Of a stretch of DNA of 64,000 bases, positions 44,941 to 51,971 are shown piece after piece (position 1 is the first letter of the stretch; each line of letters begins with the position of its first letter). Under the pieces are notes generated by a model. That model ran no database searches. It was not told the origin of the DNA and saw only the letters and a program-made list of their open reading frames with translations. A program made the position numbers and the translations under genes. Location of the stretch: positions 96,001-160,000 of the forward strand of contig JAVKIP010000001.1 of NCBI GenBank assembly GCA_031459385.1, read 5' to 3'. The DNA comes from Candidatus Fervidifonticultor secundus (lineage in GTDB: Bacteria; Sysuimicrobiota; Sysuimicrobiia; Sysuimicrobiales; Humicultoraceae).

Positions 44941-45255
44941 CTACACGATCTGGTGCTCCTCGGCGAACATCGCGCCGGACTCGGCGCAGAAGTTCGTCAG
45001 GTCGATCATCACCTCGCGGCCAGCGGGCGTGGCGAGCGCGGCTGTGAAGGCCTCCTGCGAGTCGAAGTGCAGCTCCGCGATCCCCTGGACCAGCGGCTCG
45101 CCTCGCGGGGCGCCGGTGACGACGTTGACGGTGTAGCGCCGTAGCCCCTGGAGCCGCTCACGCACCAGCGGCGCGTGCACGTCGAGCCAGTAGCGCTTGA
45201 ACTGCTCGGGGCTCTGCCCGCTCTTGCCGCGCAGCCAGACCAGGACCTTGAACAC
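44941..45255 (-). CDS. EthD family protein
   Basis: F.RYW...HAPL, GIAELHFDS, D..NF; GTG 45255 after GGGAGGT. Confidence 0.82.
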   Translation of the reverse strand: MFKVLVWLRGKSGQSPEQFKRYWLDVHAPLVRERLQGLRRYTVNVVTGAPRGEPLVQGIAELHFDSQEAFTAALATPAGREVMIDLTNFCAESGAMFAEEHQIV

Positions 45256-45278
45256 CGCGCACCTCCCGTCCCGCCGGC

Positions 45279-46094
45279 TCAGGCCGGCGCCTTGCCACGC
45301 ATCTCGGCCACTGCGGCCGCGCCCATGACGTGGAAGCCGCTGTCCACGAACAGCGTGTTGCCGGTGACCGAGCGCGCCAGATCGCTGGCCAGGAAGACCG
45401 CCGCGTCGCCGACGTCCTCCTGCGAGATGTTGCGTCGCAGCGGCGCCACCTCCTCGACGACGTCGCGGAAGGCCGTGATGCCTCTGACGGCACTGGCGGC
45501 CAGGGTGCGTAGCGGGCCGGCAGAGATGGCGTTGACGCGGATGTTCGCCGGCCCCAGTTCGGCGGCCAGGTAGCGCACCTCGCACTCGAGGGCCGCCTTG
45601 GCGATCGCCATGACCCCGTAGGAGGGCACCACCGCCTCCACGGCGTTGTACGTCAGGGTCAGGATGGTCCCGCCCCCTGCGGCTTCCAGCAGTCCCCGTG
45701 CGGCGCCGGCCACGCGGAGCAGCGAGTAGGCGCTGATCTCCAGGGCCTGCGCGTAGCCCTGGCGCGAGATCTGGGTGAACGGCCGCGCCAGCTCCTCGCG
45801 TCCGGCGAACGCCAGGCAGTGGACCAGCACGTCGAGGGCGCCCCACTGCGCGGCCAGGCCTGCGAAGACCGCGTCGATCTGCTGGTCGCTCTGGACGTCG
45901 CAGGGGAAGATGGGGAACCGCTCTGCGCCGCCCAGTTCGGTGAGCAGCTCGACCAGGTTCTCCTTGAGCCGGTCGCTCTGGTAGGTGAACGCCAGCTGGG
46001 CGCCCTCGCGGTGGAACGCCCGGGCGATACCCCAGGCGATACTGCGCTTGTTGGCGACCCCCATGATCAGGGCCCGTTTGCCGTGCAGGAGCAC
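45279..46094 (-). CDS. fabI: Enoyl-ACP reductase
   Basis: GVANKRSIAWGIA, Y.VM..AKAALE, RVNAISAGPLRTLAA. Confidence 0.93.
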   Translation of the reverse strand: MLLHGKRALIMGVANKRSIAWGIARAFHREGAQLAFTYQSDRLKENLVELLTELGGAERFPIFPCDVQSDQQIDAVFAGLAAQWGALDVLVHCLAFAGREELARPFTQISRQGYAQALEISAYSLLRVAGAARGLLEAAGGGTILTLTYNAVEAVVPSYGVMAIAKAALECEVRYLAAELGPANIRVNAISAGPLRTLAASAVRGITAFRDVVEEVAPLRRNISQEDVGDAAVFLASDLARSVTGNTLFVDSGFHVMGAAAVAEMRGKAPA

Positions 46095-46291
46095 AGGACA
46101 CCTCGCCTCGTGGGGTGCAGACCGGGTTATCGGCTTCGGGATCGCCGGGCAGCGTCCCTCTCCAGTCTCGCCGCAGGTCTCGCGCGACGCGCGGGAGGAA
46201 GCCTCGGGCAGGCGGCGCGCCTGCGGTCGTGCCGGATGGTCCGCAGCCGCGCTCCGTCAACGCAGACGCGGCCTGCGGCGCGGGCGGCAGG

Positions 46292-46873
46292 CTACTTGTC
46301 GTACCACCGCCTGAGCCAGTCCCGCAGCATCGCGGCTTCCCGGCTCTCGGTCTGGACGATCTGCTGGGCCATGGCCCGCACCTCGGGGCGCGAGGCCTTG
46401 GTCACCGCCAGCCTGGCCAGGGCCACGCTGCCCTCCAGGTGGGCAGCGATCATCGGCAGGTAGACCTTCTCCAGGGCCGCGCCTTTCAGGCCGCGCACCT
46501 TCTTGACCGGCTCGGTCACGACGTTGGCGTTGCGCCGGCCGGGCGCGGCGCCAGCCGCCTGCAGCCAGTCCAGCATCTGCCGCACCTGACCGCTCTTGCG
46601 GTCGATCATGACCTGGTTCCACTGCAGCAGCTCGGGGTGGTCCGCGTTCAACGTCGCGGCCAGGGCGATCTCGATCGCCTCTTCGTGGACCGGGATCAGC
46701 TCGCGCATGAAGGCCACGTCGAACGTCGAGCCGTTGAGCTTCGACAGGGCCGCCACGGCGGGGTGAGGCGCGGTCCTGGCGGCGGTGGGCGCCGGGGCGG
46801 TTGCGGCCGGATGGGCGGGCGGGACCACGGCGAGGACGAGGGCGATGGCGAGGAACAGGCCGGTCACGCGCAT
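46292..46873 (-). CDS. DUF305 family exported ferritin-like protein
   Basis: Signal peptide; two repeats (FD..F...LIP.H..A and Y...MI.H..G...LA), I...E..E. Confidence 0.75.
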   Translation of the reverse strand: MRVTGLFLAIALVLAVVPPAHPAATAPAPTAARTAPHPAVAALSKLNGSTFDVAFMRELIPVHEEAIEIALAATLNADHPELLQWNQVMIDRKSGQVRQMLDWLQAAGAAPGRRNANVVTEPVKKVRGLKGAALEKVYLPMIAAHLEGSVALARLAVTKASRPEVRAMAQQIVQTESREAAMLRDWLRRWYDK

Positions 46874-47051
46874 GGCACACCTCACAGGAGAGAGTCACCC
46901 GCCCCCCCGGCAAGGCGGCAGTGCCGTCTGACTGTGTACCCACCTGGGCCGCTGCTTAGGCCAGTGCGGGGCCGGCACGACCGCGGCCCGGCGCGTGCGC
47001 GGGCCGACACGCCGACCCCAGGCGCCGCTGCCCCGATCCGTTGCGTGGCGG

Positions 47052-47891
47052 TTACTTCTCGATCGGCACGTTCACCAGGCTGCCGTACTCGGTCCACGAG
47101 CCGTCGTAGTTGCGCACGCGGGGATAGCCCAGCAGCTCCCGCAACACGAACCATGTGTGCGACGAGCGCTCGCCGATGCGGCAGTAGGCGATGACCTCTT
47201 TGTCGGGTGTGATGCCCTGACTCTCGTAGAGCGCGCGCAGCTCCTCGGGCGCCTTGAAGGTCCCGTCTTCGCGGAGCGCCATGCCCCAGGGGACGTTCTT
47301 CGCACCGGGGATGTGCCCGCCGCGCTGGGCGCCTTCCTGCGGCAGGTTCTCGGGCGCCAGCAGTTCGCCTGCGTATTCCTTCGGCGAGCGCACGTCCACC
47401 AGGCCGTGCCCTGGCTGGCCGACGCGCTGGAGCACGTAGTCGCGCAGGGCCCGGATCTCGGTGTCGGGCACTGCGGCGCGGTACCGGGTGCGCGGGTAGG
47501 CCGGCACCTCCCGCACGAGCGGCCGACCTTCGTCGCTCCACTTCTTGCGCCCGCCGTTCATGATCCGCACGTCGCCGTGCCCGTAGTACCGAAAGATCCA
47601 GTAGGCCCACGCAGCGAACCAGTTGTTGTTGTCGCCGTAGAAGACCACGGTGTGGTCGTTGCCCACCCCGGCCTCGCCCAACAGGGTCTCGAACTGAGCC
47701 TGCGACGGCAAATCGCGCCGCAGGGGGTCGGCCAGGTCGACTTTCCAGTCCAGGTTGAGCGCGCCGGGGATGTGCCCCTGCGCGTAGACCTCGCGGTCCA
47801 CCGAGACCTCGACGATGCGCAGGCCCGGATCGCGCAGGTGCTCGGCGACCCACCCGGTCTCCACCAGCACATCAGGCTTGGCGTATCCCAT
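47052..47891 (-). CDS. Tandem-domain rhodanese/thiosulfate sulfurtransferase
   Basis: GHIPGA twice, active site [18 protein letters not shown]. Confidence 0.94.
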
Positions 47892-47970
47892 CGCGATCCC
47901 CCCGTCGGTCTGTGCTCCACGCCTGCGCGACGCCCGGGAGCCCCCGGGTCCCTGCGCGGCGTCGGCGGGC

Positions 47971-48189
47971 TCAGCCGTCCACCGGCGTCGCCGCGGCGAT
48001 GTGGTGGTAGTGGATCGTCTGGCGCGCGCCCGGCGTCCCCTCGGGCTCGACGGTAACCACTGCGCCGTCCAGGGCGTCCAGCACGCCCAGCACGCGGCCC
48101 GTGACGATCGGGCCGCCCGGGGCTCCCGGCACCAGCGCCAGCGTCGCGCGACGCCCGACCAGTCGCTGCAGCTCCTCTCTGGTGACCAT
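47971..48189 (-). CDS. Small hypothetical protein (72 aa), possible Sm/Hfq-like fold
   Basis: GGGAGGGAGG RBS; helix followed by beta strands, [16 protein letters not shown]. Confidence 0.6.
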
Positions 48190-48215
48190 GCCCTCCCTCC
48201 CCCGGCCGCGGCCGC

Positions 48216-49229
48216 CTATGCCGTCACGGGAGATGCGATGACCCCGAGCCGCCTCTCGAGGAAGTCCGCAAACACGGCGTAGGGATCGAAGCCCACGACC
48301 CGACGGGCGTCGGTCACGAAATTGGACAGCACGTTGATGTCGTAGTAGTACCGGCGACCGTCGCGCTGGCTCACCAGGTACTCGATCCCGCCAACATCCA
48401 GCCGGGCCGCCGCGGCGATCTGCTGCACCTCGTCGAGCACCTGCGCCGGCGGCCGGTAGCCCTCGACGCGCAGGTTGGTCTTCGGCAGGTCTACCGGGCA
48501 GAGGTCCACCGCCGACTTGGCGGTCTGTGGCGGTGCCGCCGGCGCCCCCGTCCCGTCGGTCTGGCAGATGTCGGCCGGGCAGAGGTTGAACCCCGCCCCG
48601 GGATCCGGGAAGACCTTGATGGCGTACAGGAACCGGCCGTCGAGCACCTCGACCCGCACGATGTGCCCGTCCGCCGGCGCATGGTACTCCTGCACGAGGG
48701 CCACTCGGTCGATGCCCAGGTCGAGTGTCCCCGCCCGCGCAGCGGCGTCCAGGTCCTCCCAGCGGTCGAAGCGGCGGATCCCGGCGCCGCTTCCGCCGAT
48801 GTTGGGCTTCACCAGCACGGGGACGGCGAGTTCGCGGGCGGCGGCAGCGGCCTGTCGGGCGGTATTCACCACCCGGGTGCGGGGATGCGGCAGGCCCAGC
48901 CGCGCCAGCAAGGCCACCTGCGCGGCCTTGGAGAGTTCCAGGGCGAACGCCGCCGCCCCGTTCACCACCGGGACTCCCACGGACTCCAGCCACTGCAGGT
49001 AGGCGAGGGACGCGAAGATCGCGTGGCCGTGGCCCCGCACGTAGGCCGAGGGGCTCATGCGGTTGACGACGAGGTCGTAGGGCGCCCGCCGGTCGGCCGG
49101 GTCGAACGCCAGGTCTGCGGCGTGAATCCGCGCATACGGCACGCCCCGGCGGTCGAGCTCCGCGAAGAGCGGCACGAACCATTCGGGGTGTTCGTAGAGA
49201 ATGCCCAGTCGCGGCCAGGTGGTGCTCAT
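48216..49229 (-). CDS. ATP-grasp ligase (RimK/glutathione synthetase-like)
   Basis: KPNIGGSGAGI, LVQEY, GGIEY, YYDIN.LSNF. Confidence 0.85.
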   Translation of the reverse strand: MSTTWPRLGILYEHPEWFVPLFAELDRRGVPYARIHAADLAFDPADRRAPYDLVVNRMSPSAYVRGHGHAIFASLAYLQWLESVGVPVVNGAAAFALELSKAAQVALLARLGLPHPRTRVVNTARQAAAAARELAVPVLVKPNIGGSGAGIRRFDRWEDLDAAARAGTLDLGIDRVALVQEYHAPADGHIVRVEVLDGRFLYAIKVFPDPGAGFNLCPADICQTDGTGAPAAPPQTAKSAVDLCPVDLPKTNLRVEGYRPPAQVLDEVQQIAAAARLDVGGIEYLVSQRDGRRYYYDINVLSNFVTDARRVVGFDPYAVFADFLERRLGVIASPVTA

Positions 49230-49322
49230 CGCTGTCCTCCCTCATCGGCGGGCGCCCGGCGGCCGGTAAGGCCAGGTGCGCCCGCAGCGCACGTCGTGCT
49301 CGAGGTGTGTGGTGACTTCGGT

Positions 49323-49424
49323 CTACGCCGGGTGAGCAGGCGAAGGCCTGGGAGCCTTCGCCCGAGGACAGATGCAGTCCCGAGGGAGGGGGAGGTGTCG
49401 TGCGTCCTGCCACGTCGCTCGCAT
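49323..49424 (-). CDS. Putative Cys-containing leader peptide MRATWQDARHLPLPRDCICPRAKAPRPSPAHPA
   Basis: ATG 11 nt downstream of a -10 box; shares PR[DE]CICP and a hairpin with 50661..50738. Confidence 0.6.
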   Translation of the reverse strand: MRATWQDARHLPLPRDCICPRAKAPRPSPAHPA

Positions 49425-49435
49425 GTTTGCTGCTG

Positions 49436-49464
49436 ATCCTAGCACACCGGCTGCCTCCGCGCAA
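49436..49464 (-). promoter_or_regulatory. SigA-type promoter for the leader/ATP-grasp operon
   Basis: TTGCGC-17 nt-TAGGAT with extended TG. Confidence 0.6.
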
Positions 49465-49556
49465 TCCACGCGCGGAGTGCGGAGTATAGAAGGGAGTCCA
49501 TCTCCCGTCTCCGTCACATCCGAGGGAACGGCACAGGCAGGCGCGAACCCTGGGGC

Positions 49557-50576
49557 GTGGACCGACGGTGGCTGCGCCTCGCGGCGTGGGGGGCCGGAAT
49601 CCTCGTCGTCTGGTGGGGCCTCGGGCAGTTGCGGGTGCTCACCGGCACGGCGGTGGTGGTCCTCATCATCACCTTCCCGATCTACCCGCTGGTGGACTGG
49701 CTGGAGCGCCGGGGCCTGGGACGCGCCGCAGCGGCTGCCCTGGTGCTGCTGGCAGTGCTGGCCGGGCTGGCCCTCGGCCTGGCCGTGATCATCCCCTGGA
49801 TCGTCGATCAGGTGCACGTGCTGATCCGCATCGCGCCGTCCGGGATCCGGGCGGTTACCGACCTGCTGGCGCGCTGGCAGATGCAGGTCGCTGAGCCGAC
49901 CTTCCCCGCGTTGCTGCGGACGGCCTGGGAGCGCGCCGGCGAGACCGCGGTCAGCGCGGCCAACGGCCTGGCGTCGCGTCTGGTGAACACCGTGGTGGGC
50001 TGGCTGGGCCAGCTCTACCTGGTGCTGCTGCTGCCCTTCATCATCTACTTCGTCCTGCTCGACTACCGGCGGGTGCGCGACGCCGGGCTGCGGCTGCTGC
50101 CGGCGGACGCGCGTCCGCGGGTCGAGGGGCTGCTCGAGACGCTGACGCGCACCCTGCGCTGGGGGCTGTGGGCGCAGGTCGTGGTGAGCGCTGTCGTGGG
50201 CGGGCTGACAGCCGTGGGGCTCGCGCTGGCCGGCGTGCCGGGCCCGCTCGCCATCGGACTGTTCGCCGGGGTGGCCGAGGCGGTCCCCTACATCGGCGGG
50301 TTCGCCACGTACGCCGTGGCCCTGCTGGCGGCGATCCCGCAGGGCGGCGCTGCCTGGATGTGGGCCGTGGTGGTGGTCACCGCGGTGAAGCTGCTCTCCA
50401 ACGTGCTGGTGCCCCTCGTGCTGGGGAAGTTCACGCAGACCCACCCGCTGGCCATCATCGCGGCGCTCCTGGCCCTGGGGCAGCTCTTCGGCCTGGTGGG
50501 CATGTTCTTCGCCGTGCCGGTGGTGGTCATCATCCGGGAGGTGCTGGCGTGGTGGCAGGCCGCGCGGGCGACCTGA
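49557..50576 (+). CDS. AI-2E family transporter
   Basis: PLVDWLERRG, VPYIGG, HPLAII.ALL....FGLVGMFFAVP. Confidence 0.88.
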   Translation: MDRRWLRLAAWGAGILVVWWGLGQLRVLTGTAVVVLIITFPIYPLVDWLERRGLGRAAAAALVLLAVLAGLALGLAVIIPWIVDQVHVLIRIAPSGIRAVTDLLARWQMQVAEPTFPALLRTAWERAGETAVSAANGLASRLVNTVVGWLGQLYLVLLLPFIIYFVLLDYRRVRDAGLRLLPADARPRVEGLLETLTRTLRWGLWAQVVVSAVVGGLTAVGLALAGVPGPLAIGLFAGVAEAVPYIGGFATYAVALLAAIPQGGAAWMWAVVVVTAVKLLSNVLVPLVLGKFTQTHPLAIIAALLALGQLFGLVGMFFAVPVVVIIREVLAWWQAARAT

Positions 50577-50660
50577 GCCGCGCGACGCCCCCTTGCGGCA
50601 GGGCGGGCCATGTGGTAGGTACGAGGTAACCGCCGTGCCGGCGGTCTGCGAGGTTCGCCG

Positions 50661-50738
50661 ATGAGCAGGGCGAGAGCCAGCCGCTGGAACGCCGCGAGTC
50701 GTCCGCGCGAGTGCATCTGTCCGTCGCGAAGGCGATAG
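50661..50738 (+). CDS. Putative Cys-containing leader peptide MSRARASRWNAASRPRECICPSRRR
   Basis: GAGGT RBS; PRECICP; stop codon inside a 9-bp hairpin; homologous to 49323..49424. Confidence 0.6.
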   Translation: MSRARASRWNAASRPRECICPSRRR

Positions 50739-50864
50739 CCTTCGCGTTCCCCGCGTAGTCCAGTCATCTGCTGCTTTACTGCCGGGTCGGGGTGCCCGGA
50801 GGTGTGCACCGGTTCCGGGCGTGTCCGGCCCCTGGTGCCGAGAGGACGCCGGAGGTGGCGTGCG

Positions 50865-51971
50865 ATGGAGAAGCGTCGTGACCTGCAGGTGCCTGTCGCC
50901 GGTGCCGACCCCTCGTGCTGCCCGCCGGACGATGCGGAGGTGGTCAGCGACGGCTTCATGCCGCGGCGCGCGTTCCTGGCCAGGCTGTCGCAGGTTGGGC
51001 TGGCCGCGGCCGGGTGGGCCTGGCTGGCCGACCGCCCCGCGGCGGCGCAGGGCCGGCGGCGCGTGCGGCTGGCGTTCTGCAGTCAACTGCTCTGCATCAT
51101 TCCCTACGAGGTCGCCCGGCGGCAGGGCTACTACGCAGAGGAGGGTCTCGATGTCGAGCTCGTGTACTTCCGGGGCGGCAGCGCGGCCATACAGGCGCTG
51201 GTGGGCGGCGCGGTCGAGTACGCAGCCACGTCGTTCGACGTGGTGCTGGCTGCGGCGAGCCGCGGCGCCGACGTGGTGCGCTTCTTCACCACGGGCCGGC
51301 TGCCGCTGTTCGCCCTGGCCGTCGCGCCGCACGCGGCAGAGGCGGTGCGCGGGCTGCCGGACCTGCGCGGGCGCACGGTCGGCGTCTCCGCGCTTGGCAA
51401 CGCTGACCACCTGCTGGCTGGCTACCTGCTCCAGCGCGCGGGCGTGCGGCCGACGGCGGTGCAGTTCGCCGTGCTCGGGCCCAACCTCTTCGAGGCGCTG
51501 CGCGCCGGGCACGTCGACGCCGGCATGGTGCAGGAGCCCGCGGCCACGCTGCTGGAGCAGCGTGGCGGGCGCGTGCTCGTCAACCTCATGGATCTGGCGC
51601 AGGCCCGGCGCTACCTGGGCGGGCCGTACGAGTTCATGGGGGTCGCCGTGCGCGCGCCCGAGTGGCAGGAGCGGCAGGCCGAGATGCGGGCGCTGGCGCG
51701 GGCGCTGGAGCGCGCGCTGCGGTTCATCCACTACGGCACGCCGCGGCTGGTGATCGACGCGCTGCCGGCCGAACTGATCGCGGGCGGCGACCGCGCGCTG
51801 CTGGAGCAGGTGCTGGCCCGGCACCGGCGGTCGCTCTACCCGCAGGATGGTCGCATCGACCTGGCCGCGGCGCGCCGGGTCGTCGCCGTGCAGCAGCAGG
51901 CCGGGGCGCCTGTAGCCGCAGACCTCGCGCGGCTGCTCAACCCGGCCATCGCGGGGGCGGCCAGCCCGTGA
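50865..51971 (+). CDS. NitT/TauT/SsuA-family ABC substrate-binding protein with Tat signal
   Basis: PRRAFL Tat motif, EEGLDVELV..RGG, DLRGRTVGV, VDAGMVQEP. Confidence 0.87.
   Translation: MEKRRDLQVPVAGADPSCCPPDDAEVVSDGFMPRRAFLARLSQVGLAAAGWAWLADRPAAAQGRRRVRLAFCSQLLCIIPYEVARRQGYYAEEGLDVELVYFRGGSAAIQALVGGAVEYAATSFDVVLAAASRGADVVRFFTTGRLPLFALAVAPHAAEAVRGLPDLRGRTVGVSALGNADHLLAGYLLQRAGVRPTAVQFAVLGPNLFEALRAGHVDAGMVQEPAATLLEQRGGRVLVNLMDLAQARRYLGGPYEFMGVAVRAPEWQERQAEMRALARALERALRFIHYGTPRLVIDALPAELIAGGDRALLEQVLARHRRSLYPQDGRIDLAAARRVVAVQQQAGAPVAADLARLLNPAIAGAASP

Follow-up and report, generated by a model that had tools for sequence, protein, structure and literature searches.

Background

The leader of the trp, his, leu and ilv attenuators contains codons for the amino acid under control, and which of several exclusive helices forms depends on where the ribosome stands. 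For cysteine, the closest proven systems are the polycysteine leaderless short open reading frames (sORFs) of mycobacteria. In Mycobacterium smegmatis, cysteine represses expression linked to the sORF Ms5788A (Canestrari et al., bioRxiv 10.1101/834739, the same work as Mol Microbiol 2020); the same paper predicts base pairing between the Cys tract of Ms5788A and the Shine-Dalgarno sequence of Ms5788, in an operon that includes the sulfurtransferase gene cysA2. The accessible part of PMC13236596 summarises the mycobacterial polycysteine sORFs as translation attenuation, and cites the review of arrest peptides by Ito and Chiba. The current work deals with two homologous elements in a stretch of 64,000 nucleotides (nt) from Candidatus Fervidifonticultor secundus (assembly GCA_031459385.1, contig JAVKIP010000001.1, positions 96,001 to 160,000; the whole stretch is called the window here), a member of the bacterial phylum CSP1-3/Sysuimicrobiota. 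Each element consists of an sORF with the codons for Cys-Ile-Cys and a hairpin a few nucleotides further on. It is a real, phylum-wide and unannotated leader-peptide element before sulfur genes, and it is most likely a cysteine-responsive leader peptide attenuator, a reading to which a probability of about 0.6 is given. We further infer that cysteine is the signal, in which direction the switch works, and that control is translational rather than transcriptional; the cysteine response and the switch direction are well motivated.

The element has no counterpart in the family databases searched. Rfam gave no match at gathering scores in the window, as the first-pass annotation of this DNA had left to be compared, and only five chance-level matches to unrelated families in 49200-50900 at E values up to 10. 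The NCBIfam model of the mycobacterial leader (NF042933, leader_Ms5788A; 27 positions, cut-off 45 bits) reached at best 12.4 bits (E 0.69) in a six-frame search of the genome, in an unrelated frame of 317 residues, and none of the 66 sORF peptides of the family matched any NCBIfam model at E<=1. On these comparisons, the element appears to work like the mycobacterial Cys leaders and not to be a sequence member of leader_Ms5788A. A search of the literature for a P-R-x-C-I-C leader found no description, and in the accessible text of PMC11604079, on a chemoautotrophic enrichment of Sysuimicrobiota, leader, riboswitch and rhodanese are unmentioned. The word "undescribed" in the first-pass annotation thus holds for this motif and fails for the principle, which is known from the mycobacterial polycysteine sORFs.

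Two copies of the element in the window

The features of copies A and B and of the genes that they precede are as follows.

49424-49422 (ATG) to 49325-49323 (stop TAG), minus strand: leader sORF A, 33 codons plus stop, peptide MRATWQDARHLPLPRDCICPRAKAPRPSPAHPA
50661-50663 (ATG) to 50736-50738 (stop TAG), plus strand: leader sORF B, 25 codons plus stop, peptide MSRARASRWNAASRPRECICPSRRR
49368..49376, minus strand: putative sensor codons of A, UGC AUC UGU (Cys-Ile-Cys), within the 11-mer 49376-49366
50712..50720, plus strand: putative sensor codons of B, UGC AUC UGU, within the 11-mer 50712-50722
49337..49364, minus strand: hairpin of A, by folding; 5' arm 49364-49353, loop CCCA, 3' arm 49348-49337
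50725..50746, plus strand: hairpin of B, by folding; 50725-50733 pairs with 50738-50746 (CGCGAAGGC, loop GAUA, GCCUUCGCG)
49464-49459 (TTGCGC), 17 nt, 49441-49436 (TAGGAT), minus strand: promoter-like boxes of A, by eye, weak
50593-50598 (TTGCGG), 17 nt, 50616-50621 (TAGGTA), plus strand: promoter-like boxes of B, by eye, weak
49382..49392, minus strand: C/U-rich stretch CCCCCUCCCUC of sORF A (codons Leu-Pro-Leu-Pro), a predicted pairing partner of the ATP-grasp gene's Shine-Dalgarno region
49227..49243, minus strand: initiation region of the ATP-grasp gene, from sequence; GAGGGAGGACAG at 49243-49232, ATG at 49229-49227
50851..50867, plus strand: initiation region of the binding-protein (SsuA/TauA-like) gene, from sequence; GGAGG at 50851-50855, ATG at 50865-50867

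Both copies encode P-R-[D/E]-C-I-C-P and share the 11-mer TGCATCTGTCC, which is made of the Cys-Ile-Cys codons and CC. The hairpin follows the second Cys codon after a gap of 3-4 nt (in copy A it begins 4 nt past this codon); its arms fold to 9-12 bp around a common stem core, GCGAAGGC...GCCTTCGC, and the loops differ. The tail motif GCGTAG.CC..AGTCA is also shared, and in the whole genome both the core and the tail are found in copies A and B only. The first-pass annotation had reported these opposite-strand elements, with their peptides, 11-mer, stem core, loops and tail; these statements were confirmed against the sequence, and the peptides are exactly those it had given. It had also listed a Trp common to the two peptides, which turned out not to be conserved in the family.

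The exact 11-mer occurs twice in the genome (3.30 Mb draft, 71.9% G+C), in copies A and B. About 0.8 occurrences per genome are expected by chance, as estimated from base composition, so the 11-mer by itself proves nothing. The element exceeds chance because it recurs in the genome and in its relatives.

The -10-like box of copy A ends 11 nt 5' of the sORF ATG, so that the 5' untranslated region (UTR) would be very short. A consensus promoter scan of 49150-50950 gave no promoter at threshold.

Further copies and distribution of the element

When mismatches were allowed, two additional copies were found on contigs C4 and C11, which brings the genome total to four. The C4 copy reads TGTATCTGTCC, has the stem GGCGGAGG/CCTTCGCC, and precedes a DUF4395 gene and a thioredoxin-like gene. 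The C11 copy (locus L136, 3437-5609) reads TGCATCTGTAC, encodes C-I-C-T from a GTG or TTG start, and precedes a protein of 179 residues without a Pfam or NCBIfam family, followed by folP-folB-folK. An Atlas look-up of the 179-residue protein gave chance-level scores and clusters without names only.

A pattern of the Cys codons and both hairpin arms had 45 matches in 27 of 41 related genomes, and the reversed pattern had none. With the 3' arm left unspecified, the nucleotide pattern matched 76 of the 94 CSP1-3/Sysuimicrobiota genomes, all of one order, against 3 hits of the reversed control. Its conservation extends over the seven families of the phylum.

A scan of bacteria and archaea with one genome per species returned 104 loci, of which up to about a quarter could be chance matches, as estimated from the information content of the pattern. 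Pro-Arg is read before C-I-C in 59 of them, and 58 of these have a start codon; they come from Candidatus Sysuimicrobium, Fervidifonticultor, Geohabitans, Calidihabitans, Tepidifontimicrobium, "Armatimonadetes bacterium CSP1-3" and other metagenome-assembled genomes (MAGs). The 45 matches without Pro-Arg were dropped as chance or antisense matches; most of them are from Alphaproteobacteria and other phyla, have no start codon and read like CICSTKA. A Pelagibacterium locus (L099, PRACICS) was set aside despite its Pro-Arg, as was a Gemmatimonadetes locus that lies inside a gene (L118).

Outside the phylum, two Caldilineaceae genomes (L138/G094 and L139/G095) have an sORF of the form M..LICCCCICP[E/K]RRQ.. 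with the same hairpin. Downstream in these leaders are a 13-nt perfect complement of the 5' arm and loop, a strong U-tract terminator, and then a two-domain rhodanese gene. The stop codon in one of the two genomes is a UGA in the hairpin loop; in the other, the open reading frame (ORF) passes the hairpin and gains another Cys codon. A search of 301 genomes from the class to which the Caldilineaceae genome belongs gave no sign of a wide distribution of the element, with 18 matching genomes, about as many as for the reversed control, and the hairpin in the starting genome only. One MAG labelled Clostridia has ..VATCICP before an SsuA-like binding protein. In a record of Candidatus Nitrosymbiomonas (L046), a promoter and hairpin like those of L127 stand at the contig start, and the N-terminal part of the sORF is missing (..WIQCICP, with no nearby in-frame ATG); this may be a decayed copy or a mis-binned contig.

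Evidence that the leader ORF is translated

The coding signature was examined in an alignment of 66 unique cores filtered for Pro-Arg (alignment A2), two rows of which, L012 and L019, come from genomes flagged as unpublished (G010 and G019). Ahead of the first Cys stand five codons for [Tyr]-[Ala/Thr]-Pro-Arg-x. For Pro and Arg, the third codon base has an entropy of 1.57 and 1.80 bits, respectively, and the first two bases have an entropy of 0. Pro-Arg also precedes C-I-C in all 32 elements obtained by a pattern in which these codons were not specified. An ATG in frame with the Cys codons, without interruption, is found 27-81 nt upstream in 59 of the 66 copies; the other two frames have 4 and 5. 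The Cys frame closes within 78 nt in every copy. The conservation of the C-I-C reading frame, on which the first-pass annotation had staked its proposal, is thus found with a coding signature.

The sORFs are 21-44 codons long, with 9-27 codons before the first Cys. Their N-terminal part is variable in sequence and length, and neither it nor the C-terminal part is conserved across the family. Pro follows C-I-C in 61 of 66 copies, and Ser, Leu, Phe, Arg, Ala or Thr is found in this place elsewhere in the phylum. Boxes of the form TTGACA-N17-TAnnnT are present upstream in many homologous leaders (23 of 68 by the strict pattern), and the -10 box lies 7-36 nt 5' of the start codon, so that part of the mRNAs would be leaderless or almost leaderless. 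In 61 of the 68 unique leaders, the next ORF is co-oriented and has a Shine-Dalgarno sequence; the flank is too short in the remaining 7. The wobble variation, the in-frame ATG and the promoter-like boxes together mark the conserved upstream ORF as a putative translated leader ORF.

Constraints on the hairpin and on the cysteine codons

Across the family, the hairpin has 9-12 bp and starts 3-5 nt after the Cys codons, with the conserved core GCGRAGGC/GCCUUCGC. UGU and CGRAGG are separated by 6 nt in 50 copies and by 7 nt in 16, which puts the arm in two reading frames, with a 3' arm that codes for Ala-Phe-Ala or Pro-Ser-Pro. Loop length varies from 3 to 10 nt, and 40 leaders have 29 different loops between them. 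Of the third core pairs, 49 are G.U and 17 are A-U. In the search with an unspecified 3' arm, CGGAGG was also found paired with CCTCCG (G-C); among the matches listed, the CGAAGG elements that bear a hairpin always have the 3' arm CCTTCG, and three CGAAGG matches without such an arm or hairpin look like chance hits. The second outer pair is formed in 60 of 66 copies (G-C in 49, C-G in 5, G-U in 5, A-U in 1). With an arm read in two frames, varying loops, and G.U in place of A-U or G-C, the hairpin is, on this pattern of variation, an RNA feature.

The stop codon UAG of sORF B (50736-50738) stands exactly at the junction of the loop and the 3' arm. The close relatives of copy B and some rhodanese and sulfite reductase leaders always have UAG there too; their loops end in ..UA and the arm starts with G. 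A ribosome terminating there would cover the whole hairpin.

At about 90 genuine sites, counted by hand with the Cys and middle codons left free, the codons are UG[C/U] AUC UGU throughout, apart from one AUU. UGU never varies as the second Cys codon of these sites, and the first toggles between UGC and UGU; UGU makes up 17% of the Cys codons in the long ORFs of this genome. An invariant rare codon beside a toggling one means that plain synonymous drift fails to account for the second codon. One reading is that a wobble-read, slowly decoded codon occupies the sensing position; another is that UCUGUCC would pair with GGACAGA near the next start codon. In this genome, ARAGORN reports two tRNA-Cys(GCA) genes, one of which (contig C2, 58854-58949) spans 96 nt, which is unusually long and may reflect an insertion or a miscall.

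Genes downstream of the leaders

Downstream families were assigned by the Pfam match of the first or second ORF for the 61 callable leaders, with the following counts.

DUF4395: 21/61 leaders, including L012
Rhodanese: 18/61 leaders
RimK/LysX-like ATP-grasp: 12/61 leaders, several below Pfam's own cut-off
Sulfite reductase: 2/61 leaders, L019 being one of two Pfam-verified cases
NMT1/SsuA-like binding protein: 1/61 leaders, to which window copy B adds a second case
Cys/Met pyridoxal phosphate enzyme: 1/61 leaders
Without a family match: 6/61 leaders, three of them short fragments

Sulfur-linked families are thus preceded by 55 of the 61 leaders, which are co-oriented with the gene and lie 60-280 nt upstream of it; DUF4395 is linked to sulfur by association only. 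The scan of the genome and its relatives and the tabulation of downstream genes had been proposed in the first-pass annotation, and their outcome agrees with its expectation of sulfur genes. For the uncultured phylum CSP1-3/Sysuimicrobiota, this would define a sulfur regulon that can be recognised, with up to four operons in a genome. The element would also tie to sulfur metabolism DUF4395, the RimK/LysX-like ATP-grasp protein with its 73-codon partner, and the 179-residue protein that precedes the folate genes.

The genes behind the two window copies are those named in the first-pass annotation. Copy A is followed on the minus strand by a RimK/LysX-like ATP-grasp gene (48216-49229), an ORF of 73 codons (about 47971-48192, ending ..TPVDG, without a Pfam match), and a two-domain rhodanese gene (47052-47891), whose top NCBIfam match is 3-mercaptopyruvate sulfurtransferase. 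This operon (44941-49229, minus strand) continues with an ORF of 228 residues without a family and a protein of 439 residues with a C-terminal EthD domain. The ATP-grasp ligase LysX works with a carrier protein, LysW, and by analogy the ATP-grasp and small protein behind copy A could belong to a carrier-protein-based sulfur pathway. Copy B precedes an ABC importer operon of the Tau/Ssu type, made of an NMT1/SsuA-like binding protein as the first gene, an ABC ATPase and a permease. Between the copies lies a gene for an AI-2E family transporter (49557-50576, plus strand), which belongs to neither element.

Proposed mechanism and output designs

A transcript from the element's own promoter would carry an ORF of 21-44 codons with the core [Y]-[A/T]-P-R-x-C-I-C-[P] and, 3-5 nt further on, the hairpin of 9-12 bp. 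The translating ribosome would act as a gauge of charged tRNA-Cys. With ample cysteine, ribosomes would read through the Cys codons and the hairpin and reach the stop codon, which stands in the loop or 10-20 nt beyond the hairpin. When cysteine is scarce, a ribosome would wait at UGC/UGU just ahead of the hairpin. The position of the ribosome would select between two RNA pairings, and the ribosome-binding site of the next gene would be open or shut.

In the ATP-grasp class, which includes copy A, the sORF itself would pair with the downstream Shine-Dalgarno and start region, by way of either its Cys codons or the C/U-rich codons that immediately precede them, and a ribosome parked on the Cys codons would free the start region. 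The Cys 11-mer of this class pairs with its own start region better than with 300 control start regions with a strong Shine-Dalgarno sequence from this genome (z -1.83; 6 of 12 leaders at or below the 5th percentile). Compensation is seen within the class, UCUGUCCCCC with GGGGGACAGA versus CUGUCCUC with GAGGACAG. In copy A, GAGGACAG in the start region of the ATP-grasp gene and CUGUCCUC at the Cys codons are reverse complements of each other. The 11-mer pairing of copy A (L002) is at the control level (-16.1 versus a mean of -16.2 kcal/mol, 47th percentile); its minimum-energy and centroid folds instead pair AGGGAGG with CCCUCCCU, just 5' of the Cys codons (z -1.73). A ribosome mask on the Cys codons raises the predicted accessibility of the Shine-Dalgarno sequence from 0.20 to 0.35 in the class, and from 0.29 to 0.50 in copy A.

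In the DUF4395 and rhodanese classes, which include the C4 copy, the 5' arm and loop could re-pair with a downstream segment ending in ..CUCCGC(C). This second partner lies 22-57 nt downstream; its 5' part complements the loop, and its 3' part reads ..(G)UCUCCGC(C). The long-range helix has a mean of -30.4 kcal/mol versus -20.0 for the local hairpin in the DUF4395 class, and -25.9 versus -17.4 kcal/mol in the rhodanese class. Against shuffled spacers, its z is -3.07 in both classes, with p<=0.01 in 11 of 22 DUF4395 and 11 of 16 rhodanese leaders. Loops pair with their own segment at -11.1 kcal/mol, versus -7.6 with the segments of members that have other loops; the own segment ranks in the best tenth for 19 of 40 leaders, and the segment follows the loop differences between lineages. 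The segment contains CUCC and can pair with the GGAGG region, with a mean of -17.2 kcal/mol in the DUF4395 class, a value without control comparison. RNAalifold on 22 DUF4395 leaders gives the local hairpin as the only consensus structure; the downstream segments are left unaligned by MAFFT, so the alternative helix was tested per sequence.

For these classes, the unpaired loop would serve as a toehold for strand exchange. With a ribosome waiting at the first Cys codon, its leading edge only at the base of the stem, the long-range helix would form and leave the Shine-Dalgarno sequence open (gene on). Ribosomes crossing the hairpin would break the long-range helix, and the segment would be free to close the Shine-Dalgarno sequence (gene off). 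In the sulfite reductase leaders L018, L019, L037 and L100, the downstream segment resembles a second, degenerate copy of the hairpin (GGCGAAGGCUUG[A/G]GGCUUCCGCC), which suggests that the alternative partner arose by hairpin duplication.

Several results weigh against the proposed reading. The pre-planned ribosome-mask test found no general opening of the Shine-Dalgarno sequence on stalling (accessibility 0.28 free, 0.31 and 0.28 stalled, 0.30 at the stop; Wilcoxon p>0.1), and the DUF4395 leaders showed a slight closing, from 0.28 to 0.22. This result speaks against a uniform translational model; the expression platform differs between the downstream gene classes. Redesigned masks, chosen after the first test had failed and applied to interrelated sequences, gave an accessibility of 0.31 versus 0.19 for DUF4395 (15 up and 3 down of 22) and 0.39 versus 0.29 for rhodanese (8 up and 3 down of 16), and lend weak support to the model proposed for these classes. 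Pairing of the Cys 11-mer with the start region was rejected as a universal mechanism, as it is at the control level outside the ATP-grasp class (z -0.05, -0.23, +0.99 and +0.53), in the DUF4395, rhodanese, sulfite reductase and other classes. Copy B folds no better than its shuffles (z -0.63), the alternative helix is not seen in its close relative L030 (z +0.62), and by these folds and the alternative-helix test copy B and its relatives match neither output design. The copy on C11 is the sole one in this genome without an evident sulfur link. Covariation in the stem is modest, with six core pairs imposed by the search patterns and flanking pairs that are mostly invariant G-C. The sequences are kin, and the counts overstate independent support. 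A look-up of sequencing runs listed no RNA run that contains this stretch. Finally, a pure sensor of hungry codons leaves the fixed Pro, Arg and Ile and the sufficiency of two Cys codons unexplained.

Alternative explanations

The alternative that survives best keeps the same sensor and gives it a transcription-termination output, Rho-dependent in the phylum and intrinsic in Caldilineaceae; it can be held as a tentative possibility. The Caldilineaceae leaders do have a textbook terminator, GCGCCACCG..CGGUGGCGC followed by UUUUUU, between leader and rhodanese gene, and equilibrium folds with ribosome masks form it in every state and are uninformative on direction. Over the 60 nt 3' of the hairpin, the leaders of the phylum are rich in C and poor in G (C 0.40, G 0.26), the composition that Rho would require for loading; the excess of C over G reaches 0.1 or more in 41 of 61 leaders and 0.2 or more in 14 of 61, versus 2.7% of random genomic 60-mers. 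This skew is only a hint, however, and the scan of 49150-50950 found no U-tract terminator. The complementarity of the ATP-grasp class, moreover, runs straight to the Shine-Dalgarno and start region, which argues for translational control there.

Many arrest peptides stall the ribosome with Pro in the A site, and the nascent peptide can be the sensor of a small molecule: TnaC senses tryptophan and SpeFL ornithine. A nascent ..Y-[A/T]-P-R-x-C-I-C, usually with Pro in the A site, might likewise stall the ribosome through the exit tunnel, with the downstream RNA switch unchanged; the ligand could be free cysteine, a sulfur metabolite or a metal bound by Cys-x-Cys, and not a scarcity of Cys-tRNA. 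This explanation is unlikely. It would account for conservation at the peptide level, with Pro and Arg invariant while their wobble bases vary, for the fixed Ile and the frequent Pro after C-I-C, and for the presence of only two Cys codons, versus runs in the known Cys leaders as given in the accessible text of 10.1101/834739. The residue after C-I-C is not fixed phylum-wide, however, and the N-terminal part varies in both sequence and length. The Caldilineaceae leaders swap P-R-x for more Cys codons (LICCCCICP), which fits codon counting better, and the invariant rare UGU is a feature of the codon, not of the peptide. A more specific form, in which P-R-x-C-I-C(-P) is a true arrest peptide, its cysteines in the exit tunnel sense a sulfur small molecule or a redox/persulfide state, and the stall triggers the toehold strand exchange, is rather improbable. 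If true, it would be a new ligand class for nascent-chain sensors, with a regulon across a whole phylum.

The first-pass annotation had offered two possibilities, a CxC leader-peptide attenuator and a riboswitch with an embedded ORF; the former is supported by the present data and the latter is the weaker of the two. That the element is a riboswitch, or an RNA or DNA site bound by a protein (the hairpin or a DNA palindrome) in which the ORF is incidental, is very unlikely. The 11-mer and stem are conserved as nucleotides, synonymous positions included, and the analysis identified no other regulator. Against this, start codon, frame and wobble pattern are those of a translated ORF, and a single short hairpin with a loop that varies from 3 to 10 nt offers no conserved junction or pocket. 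Rfam has no relevant match in 49200-50900 even at E up to 10. A DNA operator is opposed by the variable spacing of the half-sites and by the G.T that 49 of 66 copies have where a Watson-Crick pair would be expected.

A non-functional dispersed repeat of the repetitive extragenic palindrome (REP) type, or a small protein unrelated to regulation, would fit the several copies per genome and the C11 copy, but is hardly credible, given that all leaders with a callable neighbour are co-oriented with it at a fixed distance and mostly stand before a handful of sulfur-linked families, that the element is kept across seven families of the phylum, and that neither end of the peptide is conserved.

Comparison with known systems

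Read as a cysteine-responsive leader peptide attenuator, the element shares with the arrest peptides TnaC, SpeFL, SecM and MifM a short conserved C-terminal motif, often followed by Pro, and the control in cis through stalling that is proposed here. Points of difference are the N-terminus of the present leaders, which is not conserved, and the relatives in Caldilineaceae, which substitute extra Cys codons for P-R-x. With the classical attenuators, it shares a leader ORF with cognate codons and mutually exclusive helices, and its Caldilineaceae relatives have an intrinsic terminator as well. It differs from them in that the leader region of the window has no U-tract terminator and the cognate codons are only two; in place of the 1:2/2:3/3:4 scheme, there would be helices of hairpin to segment and of segment to Shine-Dalgarno sequence.

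The closest likeness is to the mycobacterial "Cys ribulon" of Ms5788A and Rv0815A. In both, short Cys ORFs form the first cistron before sulfur operons with a thiosulfate sulfurtransferase, several leaders occur per genome, and 5' UTRs are short or absent. A region of the sORF is predicted to pair with the downstream Shine-Dalgarno sequence (in the ATP-grasp class here), and the proposed logic, which for the present element comes from sequence alone, is that a ribosome stalled for Cys-tRNA unmasks the next gene. In contrast to the mycobacterial leaders, with runs of up to eight Cys codons, there are two Cys codons split by Ile at all sites of the phylum. The P-R-x context, the invariant UGU, the hairpin that is conserved in sequence, could re-pair and follows the Cys codons by 3-5 nt, and the different phylum are further differences.

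The element would thus be a compact natural design, with two sensor codons in a fixed peptide context and the same sensor wired to at least two outputs, and the roughly 90 natural variants provide material on how few hungry codons a leader needs. With it, the idea of the mycobacterial "Cys ribulon" would be extended beyond Actinomycetota.

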